Positions 6,591 through 28,768 of a stretch of 64,000 nucleotides of DNA are shown here, in pieces; the stretch's first letter is position 1; each line of letters starts with the position of its first letter. Below the pieces are notes generated by a model. That model was not told where the DNA came from. It ran no database searches and saw only the letters and a program-made list of their open reading frames with translations. The position numbers were made by a program, and so were the translations under genes. This DNA is from Candidatus Tayloriibacteriota bacterium (GTDB taxonomy: Bacteria; Patescibacteriota; Minisyncoccia; Phycocordibacterales; PALSA-1337): assembly GCA_016215455.1 (NCBI GenBank), contig JACRJP010000003.1, forward strand, positions 66,657-130,656, written 5' to 3'.

Positions 6591-6917
6591 TTAAGCAATT
6601 TTTTCTTCAAGTTTATCTACTCGTTTTGAAAGAGTTTTGTGATCAACGTACGACACCTTTGTTTCCATCAAATACTCAAGTTTTTTGTCGACGGTATTAA
6701 AACGTCGGTCCATTCGGACTTCCAATTCATCAAATCTTTTATCAATTTGATTGAACTTCTCGTCTATTTCATCAAACTTTTTGTGGACGATCTTAAATTC
6801 ATCACGTACTTCTTTGAAGCCTGCACCAACTATCAATGCAAAGTCATCTATTTCCTCTTTAACAACTCCTTTGATCAACTGAATATCTGCACTATTTAAT
6901 GTTGGTTGTGGATTCAT
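6591..6917 (-). CDS. Small coiled-coil protein, paralog of 25070..25411
   Basis: MNPQPTLNSADIQLIKG start; F-D-E-I-D-E-K heptad-like repeats; C-terminus KRVDKLEEK. Confidence 0.75.
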   Translation of the reverse strand: MNPQPTLNSADIQLIKGVVKEEIDDFALIVGAGFKEVRDEFKIVHKKFDEIDEKFNQIDKRFDELEVRMDRRFNTVDKKLEYLMETKVSYVDHKTLSKRVDKLEEKIA

Positions 6918-6995
6918 ACTTTTTCTTTGCTTACCATTCTCATAATTCTTCAATGTCCCAAGTGTAACTAAACTTAAAAAATATTGCAGCAAAAT

Positions 6996-7018
6996 TATGA
7001 AGTTTTGATAAAGTTTTT
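6996..7018. repeat. 23-bp motif, inverted copy at 25480..25502
   Basis: tatgaagttttgataaagttttt vs reverse complement of aaaaactttatcagaatttcata: 21/23 identical. Confidence 0.65.
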
Positions 7019-7044
7019 ATGGAAAAATCACCTCTGCAACATAC

Positions 7045-7776
7045 CTAGAGAGGTTTGCCAAGAAATACTTTTTCGAGAATACCGTCAGCTATGATCTTTT
7101 TGGGATCGCCTTGAGCCACCACCTTCCCTTTATCAAGAACATACGCACGATGAGTGATCTCGAGAAGTGATGTGAGATTATGTTCCACCACTACAATAGC
7201 GGTTTTTCGACGTTCGTTAATCTCTTTAATTTTTGCAAACACTTCCTTTACAATCTTAGGGGCGAGACCAAGAGATGGTTCATCAAGAAGTAGGATTTTT
7301 GGATCGGTCATGAGACCTCGAGCAATAGCAAGCATTTGTTGCTGACCTCCTGAGAGAGTACCTGATTTTGCTTTGAGTTTACCGCGAAGCGCTGGGAAAA
7401 GTTCAAGAACATTTTCAATACGCTCTTTGCGTTCTCCTGCTGAGATTGCCCAACCACCGATCTCAAGATTTTCTGCAACGGTAAGATGTCGAAATACACG
7501 ACGACCTTGAGGAACAAAAGAGATACCTCGATGCACCACTTCGTGAGAAACGGGAGTAAATGACTGTCCTTCCCATACCACCTTTCCTAATTCGATGGGA
7601 GCGAGACCGAATATTGCCTTGAGAATCGTTGATTTACCCGCTCCGTTTGGACCCATGAGTGCAACCACCTCCCCCTCATCAACAGCGACTGTAGCGCCAT
7701 TAAGCGCCTTTACACCACCATAGTGAACATGGATGTCATTAAGTTGAAGGAGAAGTTCTTTGGGTATAGTTGTCAT
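7045..7776 (-). CDS. livF: Branched-chain amino acid-type ABC transporter ATPase LivF
   Basis: GPNGAGKST, VPQGRRVF, LSGGQQQMLAIAR, LLLDEPSLGLAP. Confidence 0.92.
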   Translation of the reverse strand: MTTIPKELLLQLNDIHVHYGGVKALNGATVAVDEGEVVALMGPNGAGKSTILKAIFGLAPIELGKVVWEGQSFTPVSHEVVHRGISFVPQGRRVFRHLTVAENLEIGGWAISAGERKERIENVLELFPALRGKLKAKSGTLSGGQQQMLAIARGLMTDPKILLLDEPSLGLAPKIVKEVFAKIKEINERRKTAIVVVEHNLTSLLEITHRAYVLDKGKVVAQGDPKKIIADGILEKVFLGKPL

Positions 7777-7838
7777 GACGAGACCATTATACACCTTTCT
7801 TACCTTAGATTAAATAAAAATCCTACTTACGTGACGAG

Positions 7839-8132
7839 CTATGCACGGCGCAAAGCAAGGAACACGAGCAGAACAAATCCCGCAAGAGTAGATCCCAAAC
7901 AAACCAAAGCCTTTTGCAGACCCCAATCTTGCCAAACGTAATACCCCAAGGTCGTCCAGAATCCAATGAGTCCGGCCAGGATGTGGCCAAGAAGAAGGAT
8001 CCACGGACCGACCATGAACACCCCAGCGAGGGTGGTGGTCACGAGAATACCGAGAGCCAACTGGGCCGTCGATTTCTGTGTGGGTTGTGAAGCGACAAAT
8101 GCCACTGAAGATGAAGATAGAGTAGCATGCAC
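7839..8132 (-). CDS. Small GC-richer multi-TM hypothetical protein
   Basis: 97 aa, GTG start, 2-3 hydrophobic segments; TTGACG-17-TATAAA promoter at 8208..8180. Confidence 0.45.
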   Translation of the reverse strand: MHATLSSSSVAFVASQPTQKSTAQLALGILVTTTLAGVFMVGPWILLLGHILAGLIGFWTTLGYYVWQDWGLQKALVCLGSTLAGFVLLVFLALRRA

Positions 8133-8224
8133 GGGATGTGTGGTTGGAAATGAATACCATTAAACTGCTTCTGTTGCAATTTATACCACCATACTAATAA
8201 TCCGTCAAATACACATTATGTGTA

Positions 8225-9229
8225 TTACTTCACTACAACAGGACTACCTCTTTCTATCTTCTTGAGTACTAATTCGCGCACTTTTGCACCCGTAGTATCA
8301 AAACCATCTTTGTTAATGTATTCTTTTACACAAACATACGTATCTCCACAACTTTTGAATGCCTTCGATAGGAGCTCTGCAGACTGAAGTGAGAGTCCTG
8401 CAACAGCACCTTGACCATCAGCAATATTTCCAGGGAAAGAATAGTACACACCTTCGACAAGTTCACGTACAGCTGGTAACTCAACCGCATACTGAGAAAA
8501 GATCGGGGCTTTAATACCAAGTTGTGTAAGTCGAGCTACACCCTGACCAAAGAAGAATGCAATGTCAGTTGAAAATATAGCATCGTAGTCCCCTTTTCGA
8601 ATCTTAACCAATTCTGAGGAAACATCAGTTGTATTATCTGGATAGCTAATTTCATGAACAATTGTACCCTTATAGTTTGCTTTAAAACTATCATAATGAG
8701 TCTTTGAAAAAGCATTTTGATAACTAATGAGTACTACTTTTTTATATCCTCGTGCATACATTTGCTCAGCAATAAACTTTGATTCATCTTCAAGGGCGTA
8801 CTGCATGTTATAGAAGTTTCCTCCACTCGTCTCATAGAGTGTTCGTGATGCAGCAGAAGGTACCACTACAATATTCTTTGAATTCTTGAGAAGTGGAACG
8901 ATTGCTTCCTGAGGTGAGCCACAAGCTGGACCAATCACATAGTGCACCTTATCAACTTCGGTAAGTTTTTTAAATGCTGACACGGCCTCTTTTGGTTCAC
9001 ACTTATCATCTTCAAAAATAAATTCGATATTCGGATCTTGTACTGCAAGTACACCCTTCTTCACTTCCTCACCATAGTCAGCAAGAAAACCCGAGAGAGG
9101 TGCAATGACTCCTATTTTTATTTTACCTTGTGTTGTTTGATTCGTGTTATACACCGAAAAACCCAAAACAATCAAAATAATAACAGTAAGAACAATCCGC
9201 TTTTTTGATTTGTTTTTTTGCAGTTCCAT
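8225..9229 (-). CDS. ABC substrate-binding protein, Liv/type-1 PBP family (SBP1)
   Basis: N-terminal TM, KIGVIAPLSG, EDDKCEP...GPACGS. Confidence 0.9.
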   Translation of the reverse strand: MELQKNKSKKRIVLTVIILIVLGFSVYNTNQTTQGKIKIGVIAPLSGFLADYGEEVKKGVLAVQDPNIEFIFEDDKCEPKEAVSAFKKLTEVDKVHYVIGPACGSPQEAIVPLLKNSKNIVVVPSAASRTLYETSGGNFYNMQYALEDESKFIAEQMYARGYKKVVLISYQNAFSKTHYDSFKANYKGTIVHEISYPDNTTDVSSELVKIRKGDYDAIFSTDIAFFFGQGVARLTQLGIKAPIFSQYAVELPAVRELVEGVYYSFPGNIADGQGAVAGLSLQSAELLSKAFKSCGDTYVCVKEYINKDGFDTTGAKVRELVLKKIERGSPVVVK

Positions 9230-9234
9230 ACCTT

Positions 9235-10371
9235 TTATTCAACATCAACAACCTTGCCACCAGAAACCTTTTTCATGACAAACTCTCGTTCAGTATCTCC
9301 ATTTTTATCGATACTAATGACTCCACTAATACCCTGATAATCTTTAACCTTATACAACTCAGACTTGATACACTCAACATCATCACCTCCACATTTTTCC
9401 ATAGCATCAAACAAAACATTGTATCCGTCATACGCAAGAGCAACATAGAGATCTTGAGATGGTGCTGCCGAGTATGTTTTTACATACTCATCAATAAGTG
9501 TTTTTAGAGCCGGTGCCTCAGTATCATACTTGTATGTCGAAGTAAGAACTCCTTCAGCATCAGGATTTGCCAAAATTTCTCGTTGAATGAAATACTCATT
9601 ACCCATGATTGGAGTTTTTACCTGAAGAGCAACTTTTTGCTTTAGGGCTGCTTGAGATGTTGCGACAGAGTTTGTAATAAACAATATTACATCAGGCTTA
9701 GCTTGAGTAAGTTTTAAAATCTGGCTTCGGAGATCTGTTTCATTAGGTGCAAAACCTTCGGTCGCCACTACTGTATATCCAGGTGTACTTGGAAATTTTT
9801 GAACAAAAGCATCCTTAATACCTGTTGGATACTCTGCTGATTCATAGAGAATAGCAGCCTTTTTATAGCCTAGTTTAACAGCTGTCTTTATCATCGCATC
9901 AGCAGTTACCACACCGGATGCTGAGGTACGAAATACATAGTCACCCGCTGTAGTAAGTTTTGGAGTAGTTGAAACAGGGGTAAATAGAATTGCCTTAGCT
10001 TTTTCAGCAAGTGGAGCAGCTGAAAGTGTTGATCCACTACACACACCAGAGATAAGTACTTTTACTTTATCAACATTTAAAAGCTTTGTTGCTGCAGCAA
10101 CTGCTTTTTTAGGATCACAACTATCATCTTCATAAATTACTTCAACTTTTTTACCATTAATTGTGTGATTCTTTGCGTATGCAAGTTTAAATCCATTACC
10201 AATATCAGCACCAGTTGATGCGGCGACAGGACCACTGAAAGGACCAAAATATCCTATTTTAATCGTGTCAGATGAAGACTTATTTGAAAAATAAGTTACA
10301 AAAATCACAACGAGAATCACCACAATAACCCCCCAGAAAACACCCTTCTTGTTTGTTTGTTGCTCAGGCAT
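9235..10371 (-). CDS. ABC substrate-binding protein, Liv family (SBP2)
   Basis: KIGYFGPFSG, EDDSCDP, GVCSGST, GDYVFRT, AYDG, GISGVISIDKNGD. Confidence 0.92.
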   Translation of the reverse strand: MPEQQTNKKGVFWGVIVVILVVIFVTYFSNKSSSDTIKIGYFGPFSGPVAASTGADIGNGFKLAYAKNHTINGKKVEVIYEDDSCDPKKAVAAATKLLNVDKVKVLISGVCSGSTLSAAPLAEKAKAILFTPVSTTPKLTTAGDYVFRTSASGVVTADAMIKTAVKLGYKKAAILYESAEYPTGIKDAFVQKFPSTPGYTVVATEGFAPNETDLRSQILKLTQAKPDVILFITNSVATSQAALKQKVALQVKTPIMGNEYFIQREILANPDAEGVLTSTYKYDTEAPALKTLIDEYVKTYSAAPSQDLYVALAYDGYNVLFDAMEKCGGDDVECIKSELYKVKDYQGISGVISIDKNGDTEREFVMKKVSGGKVVDVE

Positions 10372-10445: not shown

Positions 10446-11474
10446 TTAAAACTCCACTTGTACGAGATATTTTGAACCGATAACTTCCCCATTTGGTTCA
10501 AAGGTATACTTAGTAATTTTTCCTTCAACTCCAGCAAGAATAGTCTTCTTTAATTCTTCAATAGACTTAGTTTTTGGTAGAAGTTGCGTCAAAAGCGTAC
10601 CAACATCATATGTTACTGCATCATAGAATGGGTATGCAGGGTCAGCGTTATACGTCGCCTTAAATGTTGTTTTAAAATCTTCAAAACCTGCTGTGGTAAG
10701 TTCTGCTCTCCAACAAACTCCGTGTAAACCAAAATCTTTAGGTGAGAATGAATAATCACAGAGGTTCACGTCTCCGATAATCGGAAGATTGAGTTTAAGA
10801 GTTTGCATTTCCTTGAGAACTTCCTTGGCAGCAATATCACTCACAGGAACATAAATAACCTTTGTTGCTCCAGAACCCTTTATCTTTGTAATAAGTGTCA
10901 GATATGTCTTATCTTCAGGTAGATACGCTTCTTTGAATACAACCTTTGCCTTATCAGACAATGCATCAACAACAGACTTTGCATAATCTTGATTTTGATA
11001 CAGTACAGCGTATGTATCTTCAGGGTGAGCAGCTATGTATTCATTAATCGCATCAACAATAGTTAGAGCATCAGGGATGAAACGAATGACTTCAGTGCCA
11101 GTTTTTCGAATATCAGATGATCCAGCATATGCAGTGAGAATAACATTACCATCTTGAGCAGCAAGAGGAGCAAGTGCTGAGACACTACCACTACATGCAG
11201 CATAGAATACTTTTACATCTTTAAGTTTGAGATTCTGATATGCCGAAAGAGCTTTCTTTATATCACATTGATCATCTTCATAAACAAAATTAACACCTGA
11301 ACTTGTTGCAACCAAACCAAGAGAACGTTGAATACTTTCACCAGCAGATGCGGCTGGTCCTGAGAAAGGTCCGATTACGCCAATAGTAAGATTTGTGGAC
11401 GACTTATTAGAAGTTACTCCAACAACAATAACGAGTAGTACTATGACGATAACGGCAAGTATAACTTTTTTCAT
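10446..11474 (-). CDS. ABC substrate-binding protein, Liv family (SBP3)
   Basis: TIGVIGPFSG, EDDQCD, AACSGS, TYD, FEPNGE. Confidence 0.88.
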   Translation of the reverse strand: MKKVILAVIVIVLLVIVVGVTSNKSSTNLTIGVIGPFSGPAASAGESIQRSLGLVATSSGVNFVYEDDQCDIKKALSAYQNLKLKDVKVFYAACSGSVSALAPLAAQDGNVILTAYAGSSDIRKTGTEVIRFIPDALTIVDAINEYIAAHPEDTYAVLYQNQDYAKSVVDALSDKAKVVFKEAYLPEDKTYLTLITKIKGSGATKVIYVPVSDIAAKEVLKEMQTLKLNLPIIGDVNLCDYSFSPKDFGLHGVCWRAELTTAGFEDFKTTFKATYNADPAYPFYDAVTYDVGTLLTQLLPKTKSIEELKKTILAGVEGKITKYTFEPNGEVIGSKYLVQVEF

Positions 11475-11495: not shown

Positions 11496-12647
11496 TTATT
11501 GTAAATCAACATACTTTCCATCTTTCACTGTTCGGAATACCGCAGGACGTTCTACTTCACAGTCATTGTTAAATGAGAGAGTTCCAGTTATACCCTTATA
11601 TCCCTTGAGATTACTAATGTAGTCAGCAACCTTCTGTGGATCATCTCCCACCTTACCAATAGCTTCTGCGAGAAGAGTGACCATTTCATAGTGTGATGCT
11701 GCTAGATACACCGGTTTTGCAGTATATTTTGCAACATATTTTTCTTTGAAGCTTTTTGCTCTCGAAGAATCATTTGATGCTACATCAGATGTATATTCGT
11801 AATCGATGTAATCAATACCTTCTGCAAGTGAGATATTTTTGAGAGCAGGATTTTGAATTGTATAGTAATCGCTCACAAGTGGTTTTTTCCAACCGAGTTC
11901 AGAAATTTGCTTAAGCATTGGCTCCACAGTATTAGCTACCTGGACAACAACCATTGCCTGAGCTTCATTTTGCACAGTCTTAAGTTTTGTTATATTAGTG
12001 CGATAATCTCCATTACCTGCTGCATTGTAAAATTCAGAAACAAGAATCTTACCTCCTTGAGCCTCAAAAGCCTTAGAGAATTCAGTATATATACCTCTTC
12101 CATATTCATTATCAGGTAAAAATGTCACTACCTTAGTGTAATTTTTCTTTGCAAGAAGTTGTGCATAGCCAGGACCAAAGCTTTTTGCAGTCAAAGCGAT
12201 ACGACATGATAGATTTGACCCATCAAAATATGCTGGGGTTGTTGCTCCTGGGACCAACATGACCTTACCGTCCTTAACTGCCACAGGACGAATCGCAGCA
12301 ACTACAGGACTACCATCAGCGACAATATAATTGATACCGGCAAGTTTGAGCGCATTATACGCATCTAAAGACTTTTTAGAATCATAGGCAGAATCTTCCA
12401 TGACCAGCTCAAGTTTTCGGCCATTAATACCGCCAGCTGCGTTAATTTCCTCAATAGCAATAAGACTTGCTTGTTTCTGAAGATCACCAACGAGAGCTTG
12501 TGAACCTGAAAGAATATAAGCACCTCCAATTTTAATTGTTTCGTTTGAAGCTTTATTTCGAGAGAGACCTGTCACTACAACAGCTACTATTACAATCAAG
12601 ACAATGGCCCATAACCATACCGAACTCTTCTTTTGACCTGTTTCCAT
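11496..12647 (-). CDS. ABC substrate-binding protein, Liv family (SBP4)
   Basis: KIGGAYILSG, INAAGGINGRKLELVMED, GITGTLSFN. Confidence 0.9.
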   Translation of the reverse strand: METGQKKSSVWLWAIVLIVIVAVVVTGLSRNKASNETIKIGGAYILSGSQALVGDLQKQASLIAIEEINAAGGINGRKLELVMEDSAYDSKKSLDAYNALKLAGINYIVADGSPVVAAIRPVAVKDGKVMLVPGATTPAYFDGSNLSCRIALTAKSFGPGYAQLLAKKNYTKVVTFLPDNEYGRGIYTEFSKAFEAQGGKILVSEFYNAAGNGDYRTNITKLKTVQNEAQAMVVVQVANTVEPMLKQISELGWKKPLVSDYYTIQNPALKNISLAEGIDYIDYEYTSDVASNDSSRAKSFKEKYVAKYTAKPVYLAASHYEMVTLLAEAIGKVGDDPQKVADYISNLKGYKGITGTLSFNNDCEVERPAVFRTVKDGKYVDLQ

Positions 12648-12695: not shown

Positions 12696-13766
12696 CTAAA
12701 TTTGCACACCCTTACCATCCTTGATAGTCCAGATTGATGCCTTTGTGTGGAAGTTGCTACTTTCAGGAGTCTTTGTTACCTTACCCGCCTTACCATCATA
12801 TGCAGTAATTGCCTTAAAGTTTGTAACAGCATCTCCTTCTTTTTCAAAACTCTGCACGAGCATATTGAAGATGTCATATCCGTACGGCGCAGCTCGAACA
12901 TTAAAGCGAAGTGTTGGATTCTTTTGTGCAAAAACATCAGCAAATGTAGGGTCAGCGAGCATTGAATCACTGTACCAAAGACCTTCATAGAGTTTTGGTT
13001 CTGGACTTGCAGCAAAGAGAGCTGTAGTACTGAGATTCTTTACCCCTTCATCAATAAATTGCTTTGAAATAATATCGAGAGACGGTGGAAATGCACCGAT
13101 ATAGTAGAGATCAGGCTTACTTGCCTTTGCTTTTGAAACAATAGTTTTAAAATCACGAACATTTCCATCAAATGCATCTCGATACACAATCTTGATACCA
13201 TATTGAGGGATAATTCGTACCATTTCATCAGTAATAACCTTAATACCAGGATGTACCTGCTCAAGAACTGCAATAGTTTTTACCCCGCGACGCTGTGCCT
13301 CTCCTAACCAAACAGGAACTTCATCAACAGGTGTCATACCGTTAGTGAAGTTATACGGAACATTACCAATCGTAACATCAGTGCAGTCACAAACATGGAT
13401 TACACCAGCTTTTTCAGCAATATTTTTTACTGCATTACCTGTACTTGAAGTCGTTGTAATGATCGCCTTCACTTTATCAATAGCAATAAGTTTGTTTGCG
13501 GCACTTGCTGCAGTTGCTTGGTTTGTTGTGTCGTCTTCAACAATCACTTCGTATGTATATTTTGTTGATTTGCCCACAAGATCAGCTACTGCGAGTTCAA
13601 CTCCTTTAGCAAGAGTCGCACCATATGCAGCACCTCCTCCTGTTAGAGGGGCTACGACACCAATTTTAATAACTTGTGTTTCACTTGATGGAGAAACAAT
13701 GCCAACATATGCAAGTACTGCGATAATAATGATAGCTACCACTGACACTATGATTCTTTTATTCAT
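12696..13766 (-). CDS. ABC substrate-binding protein, Liv family (SBP5)
   Basis: KIGVVAPLTG, EDD, DFKT, YGYD; TATACT 7 nt upstream of ATG 13766. Confidence 0.9.
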   Translation of the reverse strand: MNKRIIVSVVAIIIIAVLAYVGIVSPSSETQVIKIGVVAPLTGGGAAYGATLAKGVELAVADLVGKSTKYTYEVIVEDDTTNQATAASAANKLIAIDKVKAIITTTSSTGNAVKNIAEKAGVIHVCDCTDVTIGNVPYNFTNGMTPVDEVPVWLGEAQRRGVKTIAVLEQVHPGIKVITDEMVRIIPQYGIKIVYRDAFDGNVRDFKTIVSKAKASKPDLYYIGAFPPSLDIISKQFIDEGVKNLSTTALFAASPEPKLYEGLWYSDSMLADPTFADVFAQKNPTLRFNVRAAPYGYDIFNMLVQSFEKEGDAVTNFKAITAYDGKAGKVTKTPESSNFHTKASIWTIKDGKGVQI

Positions 13767-13905
13767 GTCTACTAGTATACCTCTAAAGATTATATTGACC
13801 AATAAATAAGACACTAATTTATCAAAATATACAAATAACCTTGATTTATATAGATTCTATGTTATATTATAGTTGTCATAAATCTTGACAGTAATCACAT
13901 ATATC

Positions 13906-14664
13906 ATGAATATCCCTCAATCACTCATTTTCCTTGGTCTCGATGAACACCAAGCACGACTATATACTCATCTCCTAAAACAGCCTAAAAATGCTGAGCT
14001 AACTGTCTTTTCTATTGCCAAAAATATTGACATGCCCCGCTCAACGGTCTACCTTACCCTTCAAGAACTTGAGACAAAGAAACTTGTGTCGTCGTATAAG
14101 AAGAATAATGTACTTCGATATATCGTTGGTGATCCTTCACGACTTGTCCGTGACCTTGAAGAGAAGCAAGAGATCCTGACTGCACTCCTCCCTACTCTAC
14201 AATCACTATCAAAAGATTCTCCTTTCTCACCTTCTGTTCAAACATTCTCAGGAGCAAAAGGAGTTATTACAGTATTCGATGATCTCTATAATAATCCAAA
14301 AGAGAATGGTGTTCGAGAATATCACACATTTTCTCATCCTAAACTTATTGAATATATGCCGAAAAAGTTTCCCAAATATATGGAAGCAAAAAAGAAACTC
14401 AATATTCCAAGCAAACTTCTTGTTCCTGGATTTCTCGCAAAAAACACCCCTAAAGAATATATGTCAGATAGCCATCGTGAGACTCGCTTCTTACCTAACT
14501 CAGTCAATTTTGAAGGAACCCTTGTTATCTATGGTCGCAAAACAGCAATATTCTCTCATCGAGACAATGAAGTCTATTCTATGATCATTGACTCGCCTGC
14601 TATTACCGAAATGCTTGATGCTATATTTCTTACGCTGTGGAATTTGGTACCGAAGAGTAAGTAA
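13906..14664 (+). CDS. TrmB-family transcriptional regulator (TrmB1)
   Basis: N-terminal wHTH (IAKNIDMPRSTVYLTLQELETKKLV), linker helix, C-terminal PLD-like effector domain (RFLP...IYGRKTAIFS...F..LW). Confidence 0.88.
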   Translation: MNIPQSLIFLGLDEHQARLYTHLLKQPKNAELTVFSIAKNIDMPRSTVYLTLQELETKKLVSSYKKNNVLRYIVGDPSRLVRDLEEKQEILTALLPTLQSLSKDSPFSPSVQTFSGAKGVITVFDDLYNNPKENGVREYHTFSHPKLIEYMPKKFPKYMEAKKKLNIPSKLLVPGFLAKNTPKEYMSDSHRETRFLPNSVNFEGTLVIYGRKTAIFSHRDNEVYSMIIDSPAITEMLDAIFLTLWNLVPKSK

Positions 14665-14666: not shown

Positions 14667-15419
14667 CTATTCCCCCAAATAAGCTTCTATCACATCTTTA
14701 CGAGCAAGCACTTCAAGAGGTTTTCCGTCAGCAAGAAGTTTACCAGCATCGAGAACATAGAGATGATCGGAGAGTTCACGGATAATATCCATATTGTGTT
14801 CAACAAGCACTACTGCCTTTCCCTTATCGCGTAATTCTTTCATAACAGAGATAACTGTCTTTACCATCTCTGGAAAAAGTCCTGCAAAAGGTTCATCAAA
14901 GAAAATGAGCTCAATTTCTCCTGGAGCACCGTGGAGCATTCCAAGTACACGAGCAATTTCAAGAAGCTTACGCTGACCATATGAAAGATTCTTTGCTAAT
15001 TCATTTCTTTTCTCCCAAAGACCAACTCGCTTGAGAACTTCTTCGGCACGTTCAAGATGGTACGTTCCGTGTTTTTCAAAAAGAGCAGAGACAATATTGC
15101 GCTCCGTAAGCACCACGAGAACATTGTCGAGTACTGGCATTTGTTCAAAGAGTTTTACATCTTGAAATGTTCGCGTCATGCCATAGAGTGGAACTTGATG
15201 TGGTACAACTTTTGTAAGATGTGTTGTGTCAGCAATGATAACGGCACCACCATCAACAGGAATCATACCTGTGAGAGTATTGATAAGAGTCGACTTGCCT
15301 GAGCCATTAGGACCGACAATACTCGTGATTTTACCGGCTTCAAATGTCACCGATAGATGATCGACAGCATGAACACCATCAAATTTCTTCTCTAGATTGT
15401 GAGTACGGAGGTAAGGCAT
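14667..15419 (-). CDS. livG: Branched-chain amino acid-type ABC transporter ATPase LivG
   Basis: GPNGSGKST, RTFQ, LSYGQRKLLEIAR, DEPFAG, VIEAYLG. Confidence 0.92.
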   Translation of the reverse strand: MPYLRTHNLEKKFDGVHAVDHLSVTFEAGKITSIVGPNGSGKSTLINTLTGMIPVDGGAVIIADTTHLTKVVPHQVPLYGMTRTFQDVKLFEQMPVLDNVLVVLTERNIVSALFEKHGTYHLERAEEVLKRVGLWEKRNELAKNLSYGQRKLLEIARVLGMLHGAPGEIELIFFDEPFAGLFPEMVKTVISVMKELRDKGKAVVLVEHNMDIIRELSDHLYVLDAGKLLADGKPLEVLARKDVIEAYLGE

Positions 15420-18575: not shown

Positions 18576-18636
18576 ATTGTCATAAGTATATACTCATGGT
18601 ACTATATGTCCATAATACGGCGAAAAGCGAATACTT

Positions 18637-20601: not shown

Positions 20602-21750
20602 CTACTCAGCCTTTACGAACTTGCCACCCCTCACAGTTTGCATCTCAAATGCATCATCAGGTGTTATCAAATAACCCTTTTGATCAAAAGAAATTCTTGA
20701 CAAAGCGGCACCCTTCATATCTTTTGTCTCAGCGATAGCGTCTCGCAAAGTCTGGCCTCCCTTCCCCTTAGTTTTTTCAAGTCCACGAGCAATAACAAAT
20801 ACAGCATCATACGCAGTTACTGCTGATGGATACTGTGGAACATGTCCATATCGTGCAGCGTATACATTTTCAAATTTCTGATACTCAGTCGAATGTTTTG
20901 GTGTTGAGAAATACGATGTCTCAAGATCACGGGCACATGTGGATAATGAGTTATAGTTACCCGCAGCTTCAGTTGCAAGAATTGGTACAGTGAGACCAAG
21001 TTCTCGTGCTTGTTTAGCAAAGACACACTGAGCAGGATCAGTTTCAACAATGAATACAGCGTCCGGATTACTTTGTCGAACCTTAGCGATAGGAGTACGA
21101 AAATCTGTAATCAATGGATTACCGAGGTCCATATCACCAATAATAGTCACACCATATTGTGGAGCATATTCTGTAATAAGATCGGCTGTGAACTTCCAAA
21201 AACCGCCATTAACCGGTCGTATGATGTATATTTTCTTTAAATTATGCTGATTGGCATATGCGAGAATAGTTCGAATTCCAACTCGATTGTCGTACCATGT
21301 TGAAAAGAAGTATGGAGCATCTCTGTCTATCTCAACATGATTAGTAGCGTCAGGCGATATTGTAGGAATTTTTGCTGCCTCTATGAGCGGAATGATCGCT
21401 TCGGTAGGCTCGTCCCACTGTGCACCAACAATTGCAACAACCTTATCGACATCTATCAATTTACTCACTACGAGTGATGCATTTTTCATCTTATCCAATG
21501 AAAGATCTCCTTCGACTAATGCAAGTTGACGACCATCAATGCCGCCTTGTGCGTTAATCTCTTCAACAGCAAGTCGTGCGCCGTTTCTTTCCTCTTCACC
21601 AGGAGCAACTCCAATACCTGTCAAAGCAGATATGCTACCTATATTAATAACAGCACCTTCAGATAGCGCAGGCTGTCGCATATATATAGCAGAAACAGCC
21701 ACTCCCAGAACAACGAGAACAAAAAGGCTTTTAATTACACGTTTCGACAT
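20602..21750 (-). CDS. ABC substrate-binding protein, Liv family (SBP9)
   Basis: EINAQGGIDGRQL, DFRT, AYDAVF, ISFDQKG. Confidence 0.9.
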   Translation of the reverse strand: MSKRVIKSLFVLVVLGVAVSAIYMRQPALSEGAVINIGSISALTGIGVAPGEEERNGARLAVEEINAQGGIDGRQLALVEGDLSLDKMKNASLVVSKLIDVDKVVAIVGAQWDEPTEAIIPLIEAAKIPTISPDATNHVEIDRDAPYFFSTWYDNRVGIRTILAYANQHNLKKIYIIRPVNGGFWKFTADLITEYAPQYGVTIIGDMDLGNPLITDFRTPIAKVRQSNPDAVFIVETDPAQCVFAKQARELGLTVPILATEAAGNYNSLSTCARDLETSYFSTPKHSTEYQKFENVYAARYGHVPQYPSAVTAYDAVFVIARGLEKTKGKGGQTLRDAIAETKDMKGAALSRISFDQKGYLITPDDAFEMQTVRGGKFVKAE

Positions 21751-21838
21751 AGTGATTATATTTAATATGGTAATCCTATAATAATATGCTAATATATAAA
21801 TTAAGCAAACACTCCCTAGTAGGAGAGTAATTAATTAT

Positions 21839-22591
21839 ATGCAAACACCTTACCCGCGCATTCTCAAACAATTTGGACTCAATCCAAACGACATTAAGAT
21901 ATATAGGACTCTCTATAACCTCGGTAGATCAAAAACAGGTATTATCATACGCGAGACAGCGATCGCCAGTTCACGTGTCTACGCTTCCCTACAGAACCTT
22001 GTGCGCAAAGGCCTCGTTTCATATCAGGTTAAAAACAACATTAAATATTATCAAGCCGAACTACCTGATCAACTTATTGAGGAGGCTGAGGATAATGTCG
22101 AGGAGTTGAAGGGTTTCGCCGACAATCTTAAACTATTCCCTATTTCAAAAAATAAGCGTAACGAAACTAATACATATGAAGGAGTACACGGACTCAAGAT
22201 GGCATACGAGCAACACACCGAAAATCTTGAAAAAGGAGAGACTGTTTCGATCATCGCTTTTGTGGGAGAGGAGTATGCGTCATCACAACCTATCCGGCTT
22301 TTCTTTTCAAAAACAATAGATCGTATAATGATCGAAAAAAAATGCCACGGCAAAATGATCACTCACAAAGAAATTAAAAAGATTATCAAACGTGACCGGC
22401 CTGACAGCTCTATCTATACGATTCGACACTTATCTGAGAACTACACTCTTCCCTACACGGTTAATATTTCAAAAAAAGAAGTTGTCATGGGTGTTTGGGG
22501 CGACGAACCAACAGTATTTACTATCAGCAATCCAGTAGTGGTAAGCGCCTTCCAAAAAAACTTCGATTATCTGTGGAAAATCGCCAAATAA
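21839..22591 (+). CDS. TrmB-family transcriptional regulator (TrmB4)
   Basis: FGLNPNDIKIY...IASSRVYASLQNLVRKGLV; YEG; FDYLWK. Confidence 0.88.
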   Translation: MQTPYPRILKQFGLNPNDIKIYRTLYNLGRSKTGIIIRETAIASSRVYASLQNLVRKGLVSYQVKNNIKYYQAELPDQLIEEAEDNVEELKGFADNLKLFPISKNKRNETNTYEGVHGLKMAYEQHTENLEKGETVSIIAFVGEEYASSQPIRLFFSKTIDRIMIEKKCHGKMITHKEIKKIIKRDRPDSSIYTIRHLSENYTLPYTVNISKKEVVMGVWGDEPTVFTISNPVVVSAFQKNFDYLWKIAK

Positions 22592-22605: not shown

Positions 22606-23271
22606 TTATACACCTACCTTGTAATATCTCCACTTGTAACCGATTGCATCAATTTCTTCAAAAGAGAGAACTCTATATCCATATCTTCCAATCATCATTT
22701 CAAAATCAGAAAAATCATCCTCACCTTTAAAATTAATATGAGTTATTGCGATATTCCCTTCTGGTGATACATAAGATTTTGCTTCTTCAAGAAATCTTTT
22801 GTGGATTTGATATTCAGGATCATAGAGTGATGATTCAATAATACCTTCAATAGGAAAGTCTGTTATGGGTAGATTTGCGATGATGAGATCGAATTTGTCC
22901 TTGGGAACATTTTCGAATACATCACTTTCGATTACTTCTACTATTTCTCCTACACCATTCCTTTGTGCATTATCTTGCGCGCATTTTACAGCATCCTTGT
23001 TGATATCAACTGCAACTACTTTTTGTGCACCCATTTTTGCTGCCCTAATAGCATGGATACCTGTACCAGTTCCTATATCAAGAACTTTTTTATTCTTCAA
23101 ATCCCCAAAGACATGATGTAACTCTATGGATGAGTGAGAAAATTTACTCTGGGGAGGAAAAACATTTTTACATGTTTGAATCTGTATACCATCAATATCA
23201 AGAATCTTGGATTCCTGATTTTTAATATCGATAAGAAAATCCTGAGTAAGTTGTGGATTAATCTTTTTCAT
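22606..23271 (-). CDS. HemK/MTS-like class I SAM methyltransferase
   Basis: NVFPP, VLDIGTGTG, VDIN, SDVFE, FDLIIANLP (NPP-like motif IV). Confidence 0.85.
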   Translation of the reverse strand: MKKINPQLTQDFLIDIKNQESKILDIDGIQIQTCKNVFPPQSKFSHSSIELHHVFGDLKNKKVLDIGTGTGIHAIRAAKMGAQKVVAVDINKDAVKCAQDNAQRNGVGEIVEVIESDVFENVPKDKFDLIIANLPITDFPIEGIIESSLYDPEYQIHKRFLEEAKSYVSPEGNIAITHINFKGEDDFSDFEMMIGRYGYRVLSFEEIDAIGYKWRYYKVGV

Positions 23272-23306: not shown

Positions 23307-24173
23307 TTAAAGCTTATATTCCCCCACCAAACCTTGCGGCCGATACAACATGAGAAGAATCAAAATGACACCGTATGACACCTGGCGCATTTGAGCAGCG
23401 ATATCTGATGGGAAACCAACGAAACGGAGAATTTCTGGAAGAAGAATGAGAATGACGGCACCCAACACTGCCCCTTTATTATTCGCCAAACCTCCCATGA
23501 TGATGATAGCGAGAAGAAAGATTGATTCGTTCAGAGTAAATGTTGAAGGATCAATGAAGGTGATGTAACTTGCAAAGAGTGACCCTGCAATTGAAGCGAG
23601 CATTGCACCGATAACAAAGATTGCGAGTTTATAGAACAGAGTATTGTAACCAAATACTCGAATCGCATCTTCATCTTCACGAATAGCTTTAAGAACGCGA
23701 CCGAATGAAGATTTCACAATATACTGTGATACTCCATATACAAGAAGAAGTGCAAGTGCCGACAAAAGAAGGAACCAAATATTTTCTGAGAACGTAAAAC
23801 CAAAAAGTGAGGGTCGTGGAATGCCAGGAATACCAAGAGGGCCTCGTGTCAGTGACTGCCAATTCAAAAAGATACTGTATACGATAATGTTGAAACCGAA
23901 TGATCCGAGTGCGTAATAGTCATCTTTGAATTTCGACAAAACAAAACCAATGAGCAAACTTACCACACCTGAAATAATCATTCCAAGAATAACTGATACA
24001 AAGAAATTCATTCCTGTTGTCGTGAGAAGAATTGCTGTTGCATATGCTCCCATTCCATAGAACGCAGCCTGAGTCACTGACAACAACCCTGTCACACCCA
24101 CAATAAGATTGAGCGATAGGCCCAAGATGCCGTAGATACAGATCAGTATGGCGATGTGGATGAGATATTCCAT
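23307..24173 (-). CDS. livM: Branched-chain amino acid-type ABC transporter permease LivM
   Basis: LSLNLIVGVTGLLS, AAFYGMGAY, LTRGPLGI, FGRVLKAIREDE, YRPQGL. Confidence 0.92.
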   Translation of the reverse strand: MEYLIHIAILICIYGILGLSLNLIVGVTGLLSVTQAAFYGMGAYATAILLTTTGMNFFVSVILGMIISGVVSLLIGFVLSKFKDDYYALGSFGFNIIVYSIFLNWQSLTRGPLGIPGIPRPSLFGFTFSENIWFLLLSALALLLVYGVSQYIVKSSFGRVLKAIREDEDAIRVFGYNTLFYKLAIFVIGAMLASIAGSLFASYITFIDPSTFTLNESIFLLAIIIMGGLANNKGAVLGAVILILLPEILRFVGFPSDIAAQMRQVSYGVILILLMLYRPQGLVGEYKL

Positions 24174-24174: not shown

Positions 24175-25041
24175 TTATTTCTTTAATATTCCCTGCGGCC
24201 GAACAAGAAGGAATATGATGAGTACACCGAATGCAATAGCATCTTTCCATTCTCCTGAAATTTTCCAAATACCGAAGTTCTCAACAAAACCAAGAAGGAA
24301 TGCACCAAGAACTCCACCATATATATTACCAATACCACCAATGATAGAGGCGATAACTCCCTTTAAAAGAAGTGAAAGCCCCATCGTTGGTTCAATTCCT
24401 GTATCAAATCCTACCAATATACCTGCAAGTCCCGCGATTGCTGAACCGATAAAGAACACCTTACCGATAATTGATCGGGTATTGATCCCTACAATCTTTG
24501 AAACTTCCTCATCATCTCCTACCGCCTTCACCGCCTTACCAAACATCGTGTACTTGAGAGTAAGTGCCATAGCGAACATAAGCACGAGACCAGTGATGAG
24601 AATAATAAGTTGGACCTGCGTAATGACTCCACCAGCTATTTCAAATACTCGTTCATCTCCTGCACTTCGAGAAAGAGTTTGAAACTGACTTGTAAAAAGG
24701 ATTGCGAGCACGGACTGTAGTGCAGTAAAAGCACCGAGAGCAGCTACGAGTAGCACCATACTTGAGGACTTTCTTTCACGAAGTGGTGCATAGATAGAAC
24801 GATAGATAAAGAAACCAATGAGTCCTGCTATAACCATACCAAGCGGAATAGCGATCCAGAGACTAAGACCAAGTGTTTTATAAAAATAGAAGACTGCATA
24901 GCCACCCACTGCTGCAAGTGCGCCGTATCCAAGATCAAAGAATTTTGCAGTACCGTAGATGAGATTAAAACCAAGTGCCACCATCGTATAAATCGCTCCT
25001 GCAATAATACTATTGACGATAAGTTGTGGGACAATGTCCAT
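24175..25041 (-). CDS. livH: Branched-chain amino acid-type ABC transporter permease LivH
   Basis: GAIYTMVALGFNLIYG, FGKAVKAV...GIN, IIGGIGNIYG, VRPQGI. Confidence 0.92.
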   Translation of the reverse strand: MDIVPQLIVNSIIAGAIYTMVALGFNLIYGTAKFFDLGYGALAAVGGYAVFYFYKTLGLSLWIAIPLGMVIAGLIGFFIYRSIYAPLRERKSSSMVLLVAALGAFTALQSVLAILFTSQFQTLSRSAGDERVFEIAGGVITQVQLIILITGLVLMFAMALTLKYTMFGKAVKAVGDDEEVSKIVGINTRSIIGKVFFIGSAIAGLAGILVGFDTGIEPTMGLSLLLKGVIASIIGGIGNIYGGVLGAFLLGFVENFGIWKISGEWKDAIAFGVLIIFLLVRPQGILKK

Positions 25042-25069: not shown

Positions 25070-25411
25070 TTAGGAAAGTTTATGTTCGAGTTTACGCACC
25101 CTCTTTTCTAAAGCGCGATGATCTTCATATTTTACTCGTGTAATAGACAAATCGTCGATCCTTCGTTCAAGGCCATCAAAACGATAAATTGTATATTCTT
25201 TAAATTCAACAAATTCTTTATAGAAATTGTCGATTCTACCATTCGTATCTTCAAATCCTCGTGCAACCATCAAAGCAAACTCTTCAAAACGAGCATCGAG
25301 TTTAGTATCGATAAGAACATCAATTTTCTTTTCGAATCTAATTTCAAAATCATCGAAAAGACCCTTGATAAGGGTGATGTCTGCTGAATTGAGTGTTGGC
25401 TGAATATTCAT
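25070..25411 (-). CDS. Small coiled-coil protein, paralog of 6591..6917
   Basis: MNIQPTLNSADITLIKG start; FALMVARGF; KRVRKLEHK. Confidence 0.75.
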   Translation of the reverse strand: MNIQPTLNSADITLIKGLFDDFEIRFEKKIDVLIDTKLDARFEEFALMVARGFEDTNGRIDNFYKEFVEFKEYTIYRFDGLERRIDDLSITRVKYEDHRALEKRVRKLEHKLS

Positions 25412-25479: not shown

Positions 25480-25502
25480 AAAAACTTTATCAGAATTTCA
25501 TA
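25480..25502. repeat. 23-bp motif, inverted copy of 6996..7018
   Basis: aaaaactttatcagaatttcata. Confidence 0.65.
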
Positions 25503-25545
25503 CAACAAAAAAGACCCTGTTATTGAGGGTCTTTTTTGTTGTATG
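25499..25545. terminator. Intrinsic terminator downstream of SBP10
   Basis: catacaacaaaaaagaccct-gttattg-agggtcttttttgttgtatg, 20-bp inverted repeat. Confidence 0.85.
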
Positions 25546-25553: not shown

Positions 25554-26669
25554 TTATTTTAAATCAACAAGACTACCATTAACAATTTGTCGAACTCGAT
25601 AAGCTGGATTCTTTACATCACCATATTGATCAAACTGAATATGCCCTGAAACCCCTTGAAAATCACTCGCTCGTACAGCGTCTGAGAGTTTATCAGGATC
25701 ACTCACACCAACCTGTTTAATCGCAGCAAAAACTGCCTGAGCTGCATCATATGCTTGAGGTGCACATGTTGGAACTTGATCTCCTCCAGTCTTAGCAAGT
25801 AATTTTTTAGCGAAATCAGGAGTTGGATTTGCAACAGATTCAGTAAATAGGATATCTATTGCTTTAGGAAGGTTTGCGAGGAATTTTGTGTCTCCAAATG
25901 TTTCTGAAGCAAACAATTTTGCTGTTATTCCAAGATCTTTGATCTGTTTAACAACGACAGTTGCACCTTCTGGATAAAGAGCGAAGTAAATATAGTCAGG
26001 TTTTGTATTCTTAATCTTAGTTAACTGTGTTTTATAATCTCGAACATCTGCAGTAACACCCTCTTCTGCTACCACCGTACCACCAAGTTCCTTAAATCGA
26101 TTAATGAAGACCTCCTTAAGTCCAGACCCATAATCACTTATATGGTAGATTAGAGCTACCTTACGTGCACCTAGATCATTATAAAGGTATTCAGCCGCGT
26201 ATCTTCCTTGAAGAGCATCTGACGGATACGTTCGGAAAAAGAATTTACCTGAATTACTCAATGGAGGGGCTGACGAACAGTATGAAACAACAATCTTCTT
26301 TGTCTCCATTGCTGATTTTACAAAGGCTGAGGTCTCACCTGAACACAAACCACCAATAACTCCACTCACCTTATCGATATTGAATAATTTTTGTGCTGCA
26401 TTAGTTGCTGGCAAAGGAGAACATTTTCCATCCTCATAGATAACCTCGACTTTTTGACCATTGAGACCGCCCGCAGCATTTACCTCATCGGCAGCGACCT
26501 CTACTGCTGCTCGAGAAGCAAGACCTAGAGATGACGCATCCCCAGTTAGAGGACCGACAAACCCAATCTTAATCGGACTCGTTTCTTTCTCTGTACGTGT
26601 TCCAAAAGCGAGCACGAGTATCACTACAAGAACGATACTACCTACCACCCATTTGCCGAATTTAGACAT
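25554..26669 (-). CDS. ABC substrate-binding protein, Liv family (SBP10, most LivJ/K-like)
   Basis: KIGFVGPLTGD, EDGKC, GGLCSGET, FFRTYPSD, AYDA, FQGVSGHIQFDQYGD. Confidence 0.93.
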   Translation of the reverse strand: MSKFGKWVVGSIVLVVILVLAFGTRTEKETSPIKIGFVGPLTGDASSLGLASRAAVEVAADEVNAAGGLNGQKVEVIYEDGKCSPLPATNAAQKLFNIDKVSGVIGGLCSGETSAFVKSAMETKKIVVSYCSSAPPLSNSGKFFFRTYPSDALQGRYAAEYLYNDLGARKVALIYHISDYGSGLKEVFINRFKELGGTVVAEEGVTADVRDYKTQLTKIKNTKPDYIYFALYPEGATVVVKQIKDLGITAKLFASETFGDTKFLANLPKAIDILFTESVANPTPDFAKKLLAKTGGDQVPTCAPQAYDAAQAVFAAIKQVGVSDPDKLSDAVRASDFQGVSGHIQFDQYGDVKNPAYRVRQIVNGSLVDLK

Positions 26670-26709
26670 AATAATATCCTTATTTGTAATAAGGATATTA
26701 TATACCTCT

Positions 26710-27810
26710 CTATTGTATTGTCACTGACTTACCATCTTGAATTATTCTCAGCACCGCCTTCGACACCACCAGTCCATCAGCATCAATCTTGAGTCCATTT
26801 CCCAAAGCTCCATTATAGTTATTAATTCTAAGGAGAGCTTGAGTAATGTCTGAAGTATTTGGTAACGACTTCTTTTCAATAGATTCTGTTGCTTCGACTA
26901 TGATGCCTAAAATATCATATCCATTTGGGGTTGCTATCGAAGGATTCTTTTGAAACTTGTCACTATACATTTTTGTAAATCCTGAAGTCGGATCAGCAGC
27001 ATTCACGTACCACAAATTCTCAAACATTCCAGGATTATCAGATAACTCAAACGATTCAATCGACGTCAAAGGAATTTTTACCCCCGCTTCACGAATCTGT
27101 TTTGTCAGTACTTCAAGTTCTGGAGAAAACATCATGAGGACAGTATAGTCCGCACCCGAATTCTTTAACTGACTTACCTGAGTTCTAAAATCTTTTGTTC
27201 CGAACGACGTGACACTCTCGTACACAATCTCAATATCAGTACCTGATATTTGTTTCTTGAGTTCCTTAATCATTTCAGTAATACCAGAAATCTGCTGACC
27301 AAAAACTGCAATCTTCTTGATTTGACGTTTTTCTGCTTCCTTCACAAAAAGACCGATCTCTTCAACTGGAGGAGTCCAATTAATGAAATTGTAATCTCCT
27401 TTTGCAATATTCGGATCAGAGGCAATACCAAAATGAATAATTTTATTTTTCTCAGCAAGTGGATTAACCGCAGATCCTGCCGCAGAAGCAAAAGTCACAA
27501 CAGCCTGTACTTTGTCATAGTCCACAAGTTTTTGAAAAGCTGAAACTGTTCGTGCAGGAACAAATCCATCATCTTCAAAAACTGCTTCATATGTATACTT
27601 TGTATTCTTCTTTTGAGCTTCCTCGACAGCAAGAAGAACTGCATTTTTTACACCTTCTCCCAAGAAAGCAACATTACCTGATAATGGGAGAATATATCCG
27701 ATTTTAATAACTGGCTTCTCTGGTGTATCTACTGATTTTTCTTTATATATCACACTACCTACAACCACGATTACGATAATACTAACAAGGGTAATAATTT
27801 TATATTTCAT
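26710..27810 (-). CDS. ABC substrate-binding protein, Liv family (SBP11)
   Basis: KIGYILPLSG, EDD, DFRT, GYD. Confidence 0.9.
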   Translation of the reverse strand: MKYKIITLVSIIVIVVVGSVIYKEKSVDTPEKPVIKIGYILPLSGNVAFLGEGVKNAVLLAVEEAQKKNTKYTYEAVFEDDGFVPARTVSAFQKLVDYDKVQAVVTFASAAGSAVNPLAEKNKIIHFGIASDPNIAKGDYNFINWTPPVEEIGLFVKEAEKRQIKKIAVFGQQISGITEMIKELKKQISGTDIEIVYESVTSFGTKDFRTQVSQLKNSGADYTVLMMFSPELEVLTKQIREAGVKIPLTSIESFELSDNPGMFENLWYVNAADPTSGFTKMYSDKFQKNPSIATPNGYDILGIIVEATESIEKKSLPNTSDITQALLRINNYNGALGNGLKIDADGLVVSKAVLRIIQDGKSVTIQ

Positions 27811-27964
27811 ATATTTATACTTACCCTAAAATTATAGGACAATTATTAATTATACATGTCAAATATATCTATACACACATCATTATACGGCTCTATATAT
27901 AGATATAATACATATTCTGTATATTTTGTTCGTCATAAGTAACAAAAAATGCTACGATACGCAT

Positions 27965-28768
27965 ATGATCTCCCATGAAGATTTAGTCCACAAAATCAAT
28001 AAAACGGGACTTACCGACAAAGAATCTTTTGTCTATAGCTATCTCATTGAAACAGGAGGTGGGTACCCCTCAAAAATATCTGAAGTAACAAAATTAAACC
28101 GAAGTACGGTATATAAGATTCTTACTTCCCTTGCTGTTAAAGGATTGGTAACTGAAATCGAAAAAAGAAAGAAGCTATTCTTTCAACCAGAATCTCCCGA
28201 AAAACTTCTTCGCTTTGCAGAAATGAAGAAACAACGTGCGTCCGAAGATCTTGAGTACGCTAAAAAAGTATTTCCTGAACTCGAAGCTCTCTTTTCTCTT
28301 TCTCCAGGTAAACCTGTTGTTAGATTCTTTCAAGACAAAAGTGGAATCATGAGTATTTTTGAGGATCATATAAAAACCACTAAGGCGTATGAAATGGTGG
28401 GCTTTGCAAACATAGGAGGACTCGAAGATATATTTCCTAAAGACTTTTTTAGAAAATATGTAGCAACAAAAGAAAAATTAAAAATTACTACTCGAGGCAT
28501 CGTACAGGATACAACACAGGATCGCACCTTTAACGATCGAATGTATACAACTGTGCAAGCTGCATATAAGTTACAACTACGATATGTACCAAGTAAATAC
28601 ATTCCCCTACAAGGAGAACTTATTTGCTACGCTGAAAATAAAGTTTCAATTGTTAACAAAACTGAATCTGGCTTTGTTGGTATTATTATCGAAGACAAAC
28701 CTATTCACGAAATGGTTCGCAAAATATTTGAGCTCGCATGGATCGGAGCAGAAAAGTTTCAAAAGTAA
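27965..28768 (+). CDS. TrmB-family transcriptional regulator (TrmB5)
   Basis: GLTDKESFVY...LNRSTVYKILTSLAVKGLV; KPVVRFF; FELAW. Confidence 0.88.
   Translation: MISHEDLVHKINKTGLTDKESFVYSYLIETGGGYPSKISEVTKLNRSTVYKILTSLAVKGLVTEIEKRKKLFFQPESPEKLLRFAEMKKQRASEDLEYAKKVFPELEALFSLSPGKPVVRFFQDKSGIMSIFEDHIKTTKAYEMVGFANIGGLEDIFPKDFFRKYVATKEKLKITTRGIVQDTTQDRTFNDRMYTTVQAAYKLQLRYVPSKYIPLQGELICYAENKVSIVNKTESGFVGIIIEDKPIHEMVRKIFELAWIGAEKFQK

Follow-up and report, generated by a model that had tools for sequence, protein, structure and literature searches.

One Liv-type importer core among eleven anchored binding proteins and five divergent TrmBL2-type regulators in a Candidatus Tayloriibacteriota genome

The window analysed here, a 64,000-nucleotide stretch of a Candidatus Tayloriibacteriota genome (assembly GCA_016215455.1, contig JACRJP010000003.1, positions 66,657 to 130,656), carries between rpsA and pth a block of genes (6591..28768) in which a single Liv-type ABC importer core is interspersed with substrate-binding proteins (SBPs) and regulators of the TrmB family. 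Annotation by profile scans (Pfam, NCBIfam) and a listing of open reading frames (ORFs) identified 11 Peripla_BP_6 proteins (PF13458) on the minus strand, five TrmB-family genes (PF01978) on the plus strand, and livF, livG, livM and livH once each, together with two paralogous coiled-coil genes, one methyltransferase gene and one 116-aa ORF; several true gene starts probably lie downstream of the ORF-finder starts. The counts, strands and coordinates of a preliminary description of this DNA all hold, as does its claim that TrmB1 to TrmB5 are divergent from SBP5, SBP6, SBP7, SBP9 and SBP11, respectively, and that all SBPs are anchored, with a hydrophobic segment of 19 residues preceded by a basic residue in 11/11 and a lipobox in 0/11. 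The chance of the block's head-to-head pattern is ∼0.04 (hypergeometric sum), the arrangement being partly forced inside the block because the TrmB genes are its sole plus-strand genes and 11 of the 19 minus-strand genes encode SBPs.

The core genes livF (7045..7794, likely start 7776), livG (14667..15419), livM (23307..24173) and livH (24175..25041), all on the minus strand, encode two BPD_transp_2 permeases (PF02653 at 163 and 161 bits; best NCBIfam matches LivM and UrtB/LivH) and two ATPases matching PF00005, with PF12399 on LivG and the Walker A, signature, Walker B and H-loop motifs visible. With this permease pair, the LivG/LivF-like ATPases and 11/11 Peripla_BP_6 SBPs above cut-off, the island has the composition of a HAAT-family importer, with all window scores far below the NCBIfam LivF/G/H/M/J cut-offs. 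The 664-kb genome (four contigs, 95.8% complete), of which the island makes up 3%, encodes 14 SBPs and seven TrmB matches, one of the three SBPs outside the block facing a sixth TrmB; no second livH or livM match was found in it, which disposes of the objection that other livHM cores might account for the SBPs. The amino-acid importer families PF00497 and PF13520 were likewise not found in this genome, and one PF00496 protein is present. The core is intact and conserved: against 39 relatives, LivH and LivM show 67–87% and 65–86% identity. Among named records, the relatives of LivH belong to Patescibacteria/Paceibacteria and the nearest carries the label Taylorbacteria, so that placement of the genome in the CPR stands. 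A complex prediction of LivH, LivM and SBP6 scored 0.58, a control with LivH replaced 0.47, and the result was used neither way. That one shared core serves the SBPs is considered likely.

The SBPs are highly divergent (17–36% identity in the window): clustering of 315 full-length SBPs from 77 genomes at 45% identity gave 102 families, the window's eleven SBPs belonging to eleven different ones, and same-family pairs within genomes numbered 13, against 33 ± 6 on shuffling; repertoires avoid redundancy. In LivJ/LivK, Glu226 is a pocket residue, and Cys53 and Cys78 form a bridge. The pocket residues Ser79, Thr102, Tyr150 and Tyr202 of LivJ/LivK (PMC6983066) were mapped onto the SBPs through SBP10, which aligns with LivK over the pocket. 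A LivJ-like signature (equivalents of Ser79, Thr/Ser102, Tyr150 and acidic 226) is full in SBP10 (25554..26669) and SBP2 (9235..10371), partial in SBP4 (11496..12647), and was not found in the other eight (SBP1, 8225..9229; SBP3, 10446..11474; SBP5, 12696..13766, ORF to 13814; SBP6, 15444..16523, ORF to 16640; SBP7, 17481..18575; SBP8, 19411..20547, ORF to 20583; SBP9, 20602..21750; SBP11, 26710..27810; all minus strand). All 11 score below the NF011933 cut-off, and they do not form a set of LivJ/LivK orthologs. The SBP10 family is the commonest (33/77 genomes), standing upstream of livH in 34/35 loci and being regulator-paired in only 2/37 cases.

Pocket columns are conserved inside SBP families and differ between them. 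Judging from their LivJ-like pockets, SBP10 and SBP2 would bind alpha-amino acids, and the remaining window SBPs probably bind other small solutes, whether other amino acids, amides, or organic or aromatic acids. Ligand assignment from PDB matches failed, the best being 15–25% identical and including binders of amino acids, of urea and of aromatic acids alike. SBP6 was modelled as an ordinary type-1 SBP (TM 0.7–0.78 to the fold) whose N-terminal helix stands apart, its best structural and sequence matches being hydroxybenzoate binders from which the ligand cannot be read because identity is only 18–20%; a search of viral contigs with SBP6 alone, in a scan reaching close relatives only, gave no relative. 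The preliminary description had different ligand receptors plugged into one shared translocator: the modular units, the single core, the differing pockets and the regulator-specific sites stand; docking of all SBPs on the core is putative, as are the ligands.

The regulators, all on the plus strand (TrmB1, 13906..14664, ORF from 13885; TrmB2, 16632..17378, ORF from 16614; TrmB3, 18637..19407; TrmB4, 21839..22591; TrmB5, 27965..28768, ORF from 27926), share 18–28% identity, and the TrmB-type winged helix-turn-helix (wHTH) domain (PF01978) is above cut-off in 5/5. TrmB5, the one regulator modelled, comprises a wHTH, a long helix and a phospholipase D (PLD)-like domain (pLDDT 96), with TrmBL2 as the best match (5bpd, E 1.6e-14 over the whole length, 16–18% identity). 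At 250–268 aa, the five differ from the sugar-sensing TrmB/TrmBL1 type (∼340 aa, effector domain with G320/E326); none matches PF11495, and scores lie far below the NF047390 cut-off. According to the review PMC4158304, TrmBL2 is a chromatin protein and is without the 70 residues that include the sugar-binding portion. Because the regulators are TrmBL2-type without that subdomain, their sensing of ligands is something we infer; of the earlier characterisation as wHTH plus ligand-binding domain, the first half is borne out and the second is not inherited from TrmB. A nuclease role for the PLD-like domain was rejected, the HxK(x4)D motif occurring in 0/90 regulators.

Support for joint inheritance of receptor and regulator comes from 90 SBP–TrmB pairs in 34 genomes, with partners shuffled 1000 times within genomes, a procedure that preserves genome relatedness. 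SBP identity predicts partner TrmB identity (r 0.73 vs 0.13 ± 0.05 shuffled; 0/1000 shuffles reach it), and a nearest-neighbour test was successful for 59/76 pairs against 22 expected; the effective sample is tens of families, because SBP and TrmB families recur among the 90 pairs. Receptor and regulator are thus co-inherited across these genomes. SBP identity tracks the regulator C-terminal domain over the DNA-binding domain (beta 0.64 vs 0.12), a comparison weakened by the C-terminal domain being longer and more variable; lineage-specific conserved residues are carried by the C-terminal domain, and recognition helices also differ by lineage. TrmB1 is an exception and shows partner swapping: its closest relatives (63–68%) face SBPs merely 21–28% like SBP5. 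Six of the 11 window SBPs have no facing regulator. SBP families hold preferred operon slots, yet do move.

Beside the regulator gene lies a conserved palindrome, a different one in every regulator lineage. Upstream motifs are alike in 5/5 comparisons with the same TrmB and a different SBP, and in 3/46 with the same SBP and a different TrmB; the palindrome follows the regulator lineage, not the SBP. Operator models were built only from other genomes, from seeds picked by eye with the window sites visible, and when scanned against the 664-kb genome they placed the cognate window site first for TrmB2–5 and second for TrmB1. The predicted operators are TGTCA-N7-TGACA for TrmB1 (13874..13891, window site left out of the model), ATCAG-N5-CTGAT over the TrmB2 -35 position (16585..16605), the ATTCG-N8-CGAAT type for TrmB3 (18615..18632), the CTCTCC-N6-GGAGAG type for TrmB4 (21807..21827), and TTTTGT-N12-ACAAAA for TrmB5 (27924..27947), its right half at the TrmB5 -35 position. 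Beyond the cognate sites, no match of the five models stood out convincingly in the genome as a wider regulon, and single palindromes specific to a lineage argue for specific rather than chromatin-wide binding. Generic promoter and terminator scans were at chance level (31 vs 33 and 33 vs 33.5), and promoter and operator evidence was limited to sites conserved in homologs; among individual features, a terminator-like hairpin (17394..17412, minus strand) lies between SBP7 and TrmB2, and a perfect 20-bp hairpin behind SBP10 (25499..25545) is a likely terminator.

An operator placed at a regulator's own transcript start and just upstream of a weak -35 has a geometry that fits self-repression combined with class II activation. 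The predicted TrmB3 site spans the beginning of the regulator's transcript region, and the weak -35 of a sigma70-like SBP7 promoter (18585..18612, minus strand, TGGACA-16-TATACT) follows it after 2 nt; in the SBP7 family, present in 20/77 genomes, 14/14 sites read by eye have a T..AC(A/T) hexamer exactly 2 nt after, then a -10-like hexamer. The arrangement recurs at TrmB4/SBP9, there with a spacing of 1 nt. The TrmB1, TrmB2 and TrmB5 sites adjoin the regulator's own start, ∼80–130 nt from the SBP start. The claim that each regulator switches on its receptor or receptors therefore gains support from promoter geometry for TrmB3/SBP7 and TrmB4/SBP9 and none from it for TrmB1, TrmB2 and TrmB5, six SBPs being unpaired in any case. 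Local transcriptional control by the cognate regulator is very probable; that induction is by the SBP's own ligand is rated slightly better than even.

The chief alternative on the regulatory side keeps the importer shared and makes the regulators blind to the transported solute, so that they would be autoregulated local repressors or activators that either answer something else, such as stress, proteolysis or host contact, or make expression noisy as a form of bet-hedging. It accommodates the TrmBL2-type architecture without a sugar-binding subdomain (PMC4158304), the three sites overlapping the regulators' own promoter regions at a distance from the SBP start, the partner swap at TrmB1, and the similar regulators elsewhere that face radical-SAM, aminotransferase, inositol-phosphatase and Apyc1-like genes, often metabolic enzymes. 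We regard it as unlikely, given that SBP–TrmB pairs persist over long distances, that the conserved residues of the C-terminal domain are lineage-specific and track the SBP family, and that operator/-35 spacing toward the SBP is fixed in two lineages.

Recurrence in relatives was examined in 80 livH loci (the best 80 of 199 from the species collection, many truncated where a contig or the 10-kb flank ends, two repeating the islands of relatives G008 and G015), which hold 302 SBPs and 85 TrmBs; 75/85 TrmBs are head-to-head with an SBP, so the pairing first seen in the window recurs. SBPs lie on the core strand in 296/302 cases and TrmBs opposite to the core in 80/85; where all four core genes are visible, their order is H-M-G-F in 41/42 loci, and at least one SBP stands between livH and livF in 32/42. 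A full livHM pair was found in 3/40 relatives (G008, G015 and G016). G008 encodes 24 SBPs, 22 TrmB matches and one livHM, with a TrmB faced by 15/24 SBPs, including 11/17 dispersed away from the core, a count from which 3 partial SBP matches and the 8 weakest TrmB matches were omitted. Across the class, the permease family is matched in 7/300 other genomes, and livH and livM both in 6, which have 2–6+ SBPs each (at most 6 candidates being scored per genome); the 12 genomes with SBPs and without the pair have one (11 genomes) or two (one genome). SBP expansion goes along with the core. The island is rare and patchy (8/301 class genomes) and occupies different chromosomal sites, rpsA–pth here, cysS–dnaB in G008 and beside rny in G015.

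These distributions bear on the proposal that only the LivJ-like SBP10 and SBP2 feed the transporter, the divergent paired SBPs being core-independent surface receptors or adhesins that collect in the island. The LivJ signature is indeed found in 3/92 regulator-paired against 27/223 unpaired SBPs (family members not being independent), pairs in G008 and G000 are dispersed at a great distance from the core, and G005 has pairs without a detected core. Divergent SBPs are, however, inserted between core genes on the core strand, large expansions were seen only together with the core, and the SBP anchors have almost no cytoplasmic tail for signalling; we therefore judge it quite unlikely. The lone G009 SBP, relic-like at the site of the G008 island, also speaks against it. 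In G009 this SBP (L020:4572-5708) lies between cysS and dnaB, where G008 (L001) has the whole liv island, and it is likely a relic of island loss.

Assembly integrity and strain variation were addressed with four DNA runs (X1–X4) from three studies that contain the stretch, no RNA runs containing it being listed; comparison of reads and contigs covers 5200–18000. Genuine strain variation at the locus could be taken to favour a chimera of strain variants, for which SBPs 17–36% identical are far too divergent. In X1, possibly the source of the assembly, a single contig of 34 kb shows flat depth, and X3, from another study, has a single contig of 32 kb, both with the same left-half order; the layout recurs in dozens of genomes. 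A chimera, refuted for 5200–18000, is exceedingly improbable overall.

The variation itself affects whole receptors. Runs X2, X3 and X4 skip 9122–10282, with 19 other letters in place, which by frame count joins the SBP2 anchor in frame to codon 37 of SBP1, the first strand of its binding domain; because of this fusion the SBP2 body is absent from their main form. Low-depth pieces of X2 also show the long SBP1/SBP2 form, a difference that could be a gain or a loss. In X2, a graph bubble joins 15480 to 17488; the joint has depth 29, whereas the contig with SBP6 and TrmB2 has depth 10, with 30 letters on the short side, as such bubbles would give; the two genes are missing in about three quarters of the population, contig depth not being a cell count. 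In the short form the final 11 codons of SBP6 remain, placed after the stop codon of SBP7, for which reason it is read as a deletion of exactly one SBP–regulator cassette, and the remnant may hold a weak promoter-like match for livG. A low-depth X2 joint, 11372–17381 (depth 3.4, intervening letters unread), would remove livG and was not relied on. The livF differences listed in X2 fall at third codon positions in 5/5 cases.

Such losses within one population, the patchy island and repertoires whose mean Jaccard overlap is 0.10–0.25, low even at LivH identity >80%, would also be expected of a nearly neutral recombination hot spot, with cassettes drifting in and out and most unused. Set against this, short (incomplete) genes number only 6/277 internal SBPs and 3/84 TrmBs, each family conserves its operators and its pocket residues, and same-family duplicates are avoided. 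The strong selection, for example on host range, suggested in the preliminary description may apply: intact cassette frames argue for selection, but cassettes are also lost within populations. We hold neutrality to be very improbable. An integron or site-specific cassette array was rejected: no integrase was found near the island, the sole tyrosine recombinase match being on another contig, and no att-like repeats mark cassette ends, the listed repeats being coding homologies. ComEC and DprA are present in the genome.

The explanation we favour, and hold to be reasonably probable as a whole, is that of a shared core with receptor–regulator cassettes. The locus is an accessory island in which one Liv/HAAT-family core likely receives solutes from all eleven membrane-anchored SBPs. 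Five of these are inherited as cassettes, each together with its TrmBL2-type regulator and the palindrome, specific to the lineage, that is predicted as the regulator's binding site, and whole cassettes differ between close strains; SBP10 would be the default, unregulated amino-acid receptor, and the accessory SBPs would widen the solute range. The imported solute is proposed to bind the regulator's PLD-like C-terminal domain, and the regulator to be self-repressing and also, in the case of TrmB3/SBP7 and TrmB4/SBP9 at least, to activate the facing SBP from a site just upstream of the weak -35, such that costly receptors competing for one translocon would be made only while their ligand is present. 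Cassettes may be exchanged when DNA is taken up and recombined by a RecA-type mechanism, for which the core genes and the conserved ends of SBP genes would serve as anchors.

Several points weigh against this explanation. That one permease passes chemically diverse solutes is an assumption; G005 (one contig, 80% complete) has three SBPs, two of them paired, and no livHM detected, and no livHM match was found in 12/18 class genomes holding an SBP. A single core is not universal, because one assembly has two livH loci, L033 and L045, on two contigs with six SBPs in view each. The missing sugar-binding subdomain and the role of TrmBL2 itself as a general chromatin protein tell against ligand sensing. 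The TrmB1, TrmB2 and TrmB5 sites are far enough from the SBP start that these regulators may perhaps only autoregulate, and several palindromes hold TTGAC-like halves and could partly be back-to-back -35 boxes. Finally, at 16/20 sampled loci without SBPs the TrmB-like gene faces an unrelated divergent ORF (some ORFs being doubtful), and regulators of this type are general local partners in the lineage.

Other neighbours of such regulators were noted. At L006:12403-15814 in G008, a TrmB-like gene is divergent from an NMT1-type SBP that has an ATPase and a BPD_transp_1 permease of its own, which extends the regulatory logic to a further transporter class, and three dispersed SBPs (L012:3769-4602, L013:3469-4269, L010:5989-6807) face ∼270-aa proteins without a Pfam match, two of which resemble another helix-turn-helix type. 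TrmB-like genes also face an Apyc1-like metallo-beta-lactamase (G027, L114:1297-2226) and a Csx3-like small protein (G002, L104:1553-1918), neighbours linked to cyclic-nucleotide turnover that hint at nucleotide ligands for some regulators.

More than one SBP on a single core is familiar from Escherichia coli LIV-I, in which LivJ and LivK both serve LivHMGF, and the BPD_transp_2 permease pair, LivG/LivF-like ATPases, Peripla_BP_6 SBPs and SBP10–LivK pocket alignment are shared with it. Unlike LIV-I, the present locus has 11 SBPs (14 in the genome) that are N-terminally anchored, 17–36% identical and mostly without the LivJ pocket, and its accessory SBPs have, in place of global control, their own divergent regulators (five of eleven faced). 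The Opp system of Borrelia burgdorferi (OppA1-5), in which binding proteins of distinct predicted ranges are independently regulated and share constitutive permease/ATPase parts (PMC5736914), is comparable as a small-genome auxotroph's set of several SBPs on a common core; it differs in having Cluster-C peptide binders, five fixed paralogs and two permeases, and the available text of PMC5736914 describes no dedicated regulator-plus-operator cassette per SBP. Unlike that fixed set, repertoires of the window type are a variable draw from about 100 families.

Archaeal TrmB controls ABC-importer operons, and TrmBL1 autoregulates, represses or activates, according to PMC4158304. The window regulators resemble archaeal TrmB/TrmBL1/TrmBL2 (5bpd, 3qph) in the wHTH, dimer helix, PLD-like domain and short palindromic sites, the TrmB1 and TrmB2 sites sharing the 17-bp geometry of archaeal TATCAC-N5-GTGATA. 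Like TrmBL2, they have ∼250 aa without sugar-binding residues; unlike it, each lineage has one specific predicted local site, and unlike archaeal TrmB, they act at bacterial sigma70 promoters, by prediction, and are partnered with a HAAT SBP in place of a sugar ABC operon. Ligands other than Leu/Ile/Val are bound by several HAAT-fold SBPs, among them Agrobacterium Atu2422/Bra and Atu4243, two gamma-aminobutyric acid systems treated as distinct in the review PMC3907764, and the aromatic-acid SBPs of R. palustris (4evq, 4ey3). A separately repressed specific SBP is a trait shared with Agrobacterium (PMC3907764), whereas both bacteria have large proteobacterial genomes with many cores and no cassette array. 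One Woesearchaeota genome is reported with a complete liv set in PMC11606122, the available text of which describes no such array. In the open-access literature searched, no published description of a receptor–regulator–operator array was found. Several SBPs on one core and TrmB control of ABC importers are already known; the differences lie in the exchangeable receptor–regulator–operator cassette and in how large a pool of these such tiny genomes have.

Patescibacteria are usually seen as poor in transport and regulation, and what their hosts or surroundings supply is largely open. A broader extension, which we put forward tentatively and rate at rather less than even, is that Paceibacteria would draw on a common pool of roughly a hundred portable cassettes, each an anchored receptor, a ligand-gated TrmBL2-type regulator and a private operator, swapped by transformation into one universal HAAT translocon. 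Gain and loss of modules among close strains would let cells retune scavenging, and a genome's cassette list would then be a readable record of the metabolites that an uncultured symbiont takes from its host. If the scheme is correct, it would also provide orthogonal regulator–operator pairs and a first ligand function for TrmBL2-type proteins, whose PLD-like domain would have diversified widely as a sensor of small molecules. Ligands should be findable in vitro without culture, because each cassette gives two soluble proteins expected to share a ligand and a predicted 18–24-bp site, the paired SBP and regulator forming a built-in cross-check.

The remaining genes of the block lie on the minus strand. 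Small coiled-coil protein 1 (6591..6917, likely start 6917, ORF to 6992) is a paralog of small coiled-coil protein 2 (25070..25411, ORF to 25471; 34% identity, E 5e-17); a 23-nt motif stands upstream of both genes (6996–7018 and 25480–25502), in opposite orientation relative to them (2 occurrences vs 0.01 expected), and a small gene like these comes after livF in G008 (L001:3506-3871). The 116-aa ORF (7810..8160) has no family match in the profile scans. The class I S-adenosylmethionine (SAM) methyltransferase (22606..23271, HemK-related) is regarded as a passenger, and methyltransferase genes are also found among the cassettes of liv islands L029, L073, L074 and L083. Four of the five TrmB genes end 2–14 nt from a convergent gene (14664/14667, 19407/19411, 22591/22606 and 28768/28777), and sense–antisense overlap is likely because such gaps leave no space for a terminator.

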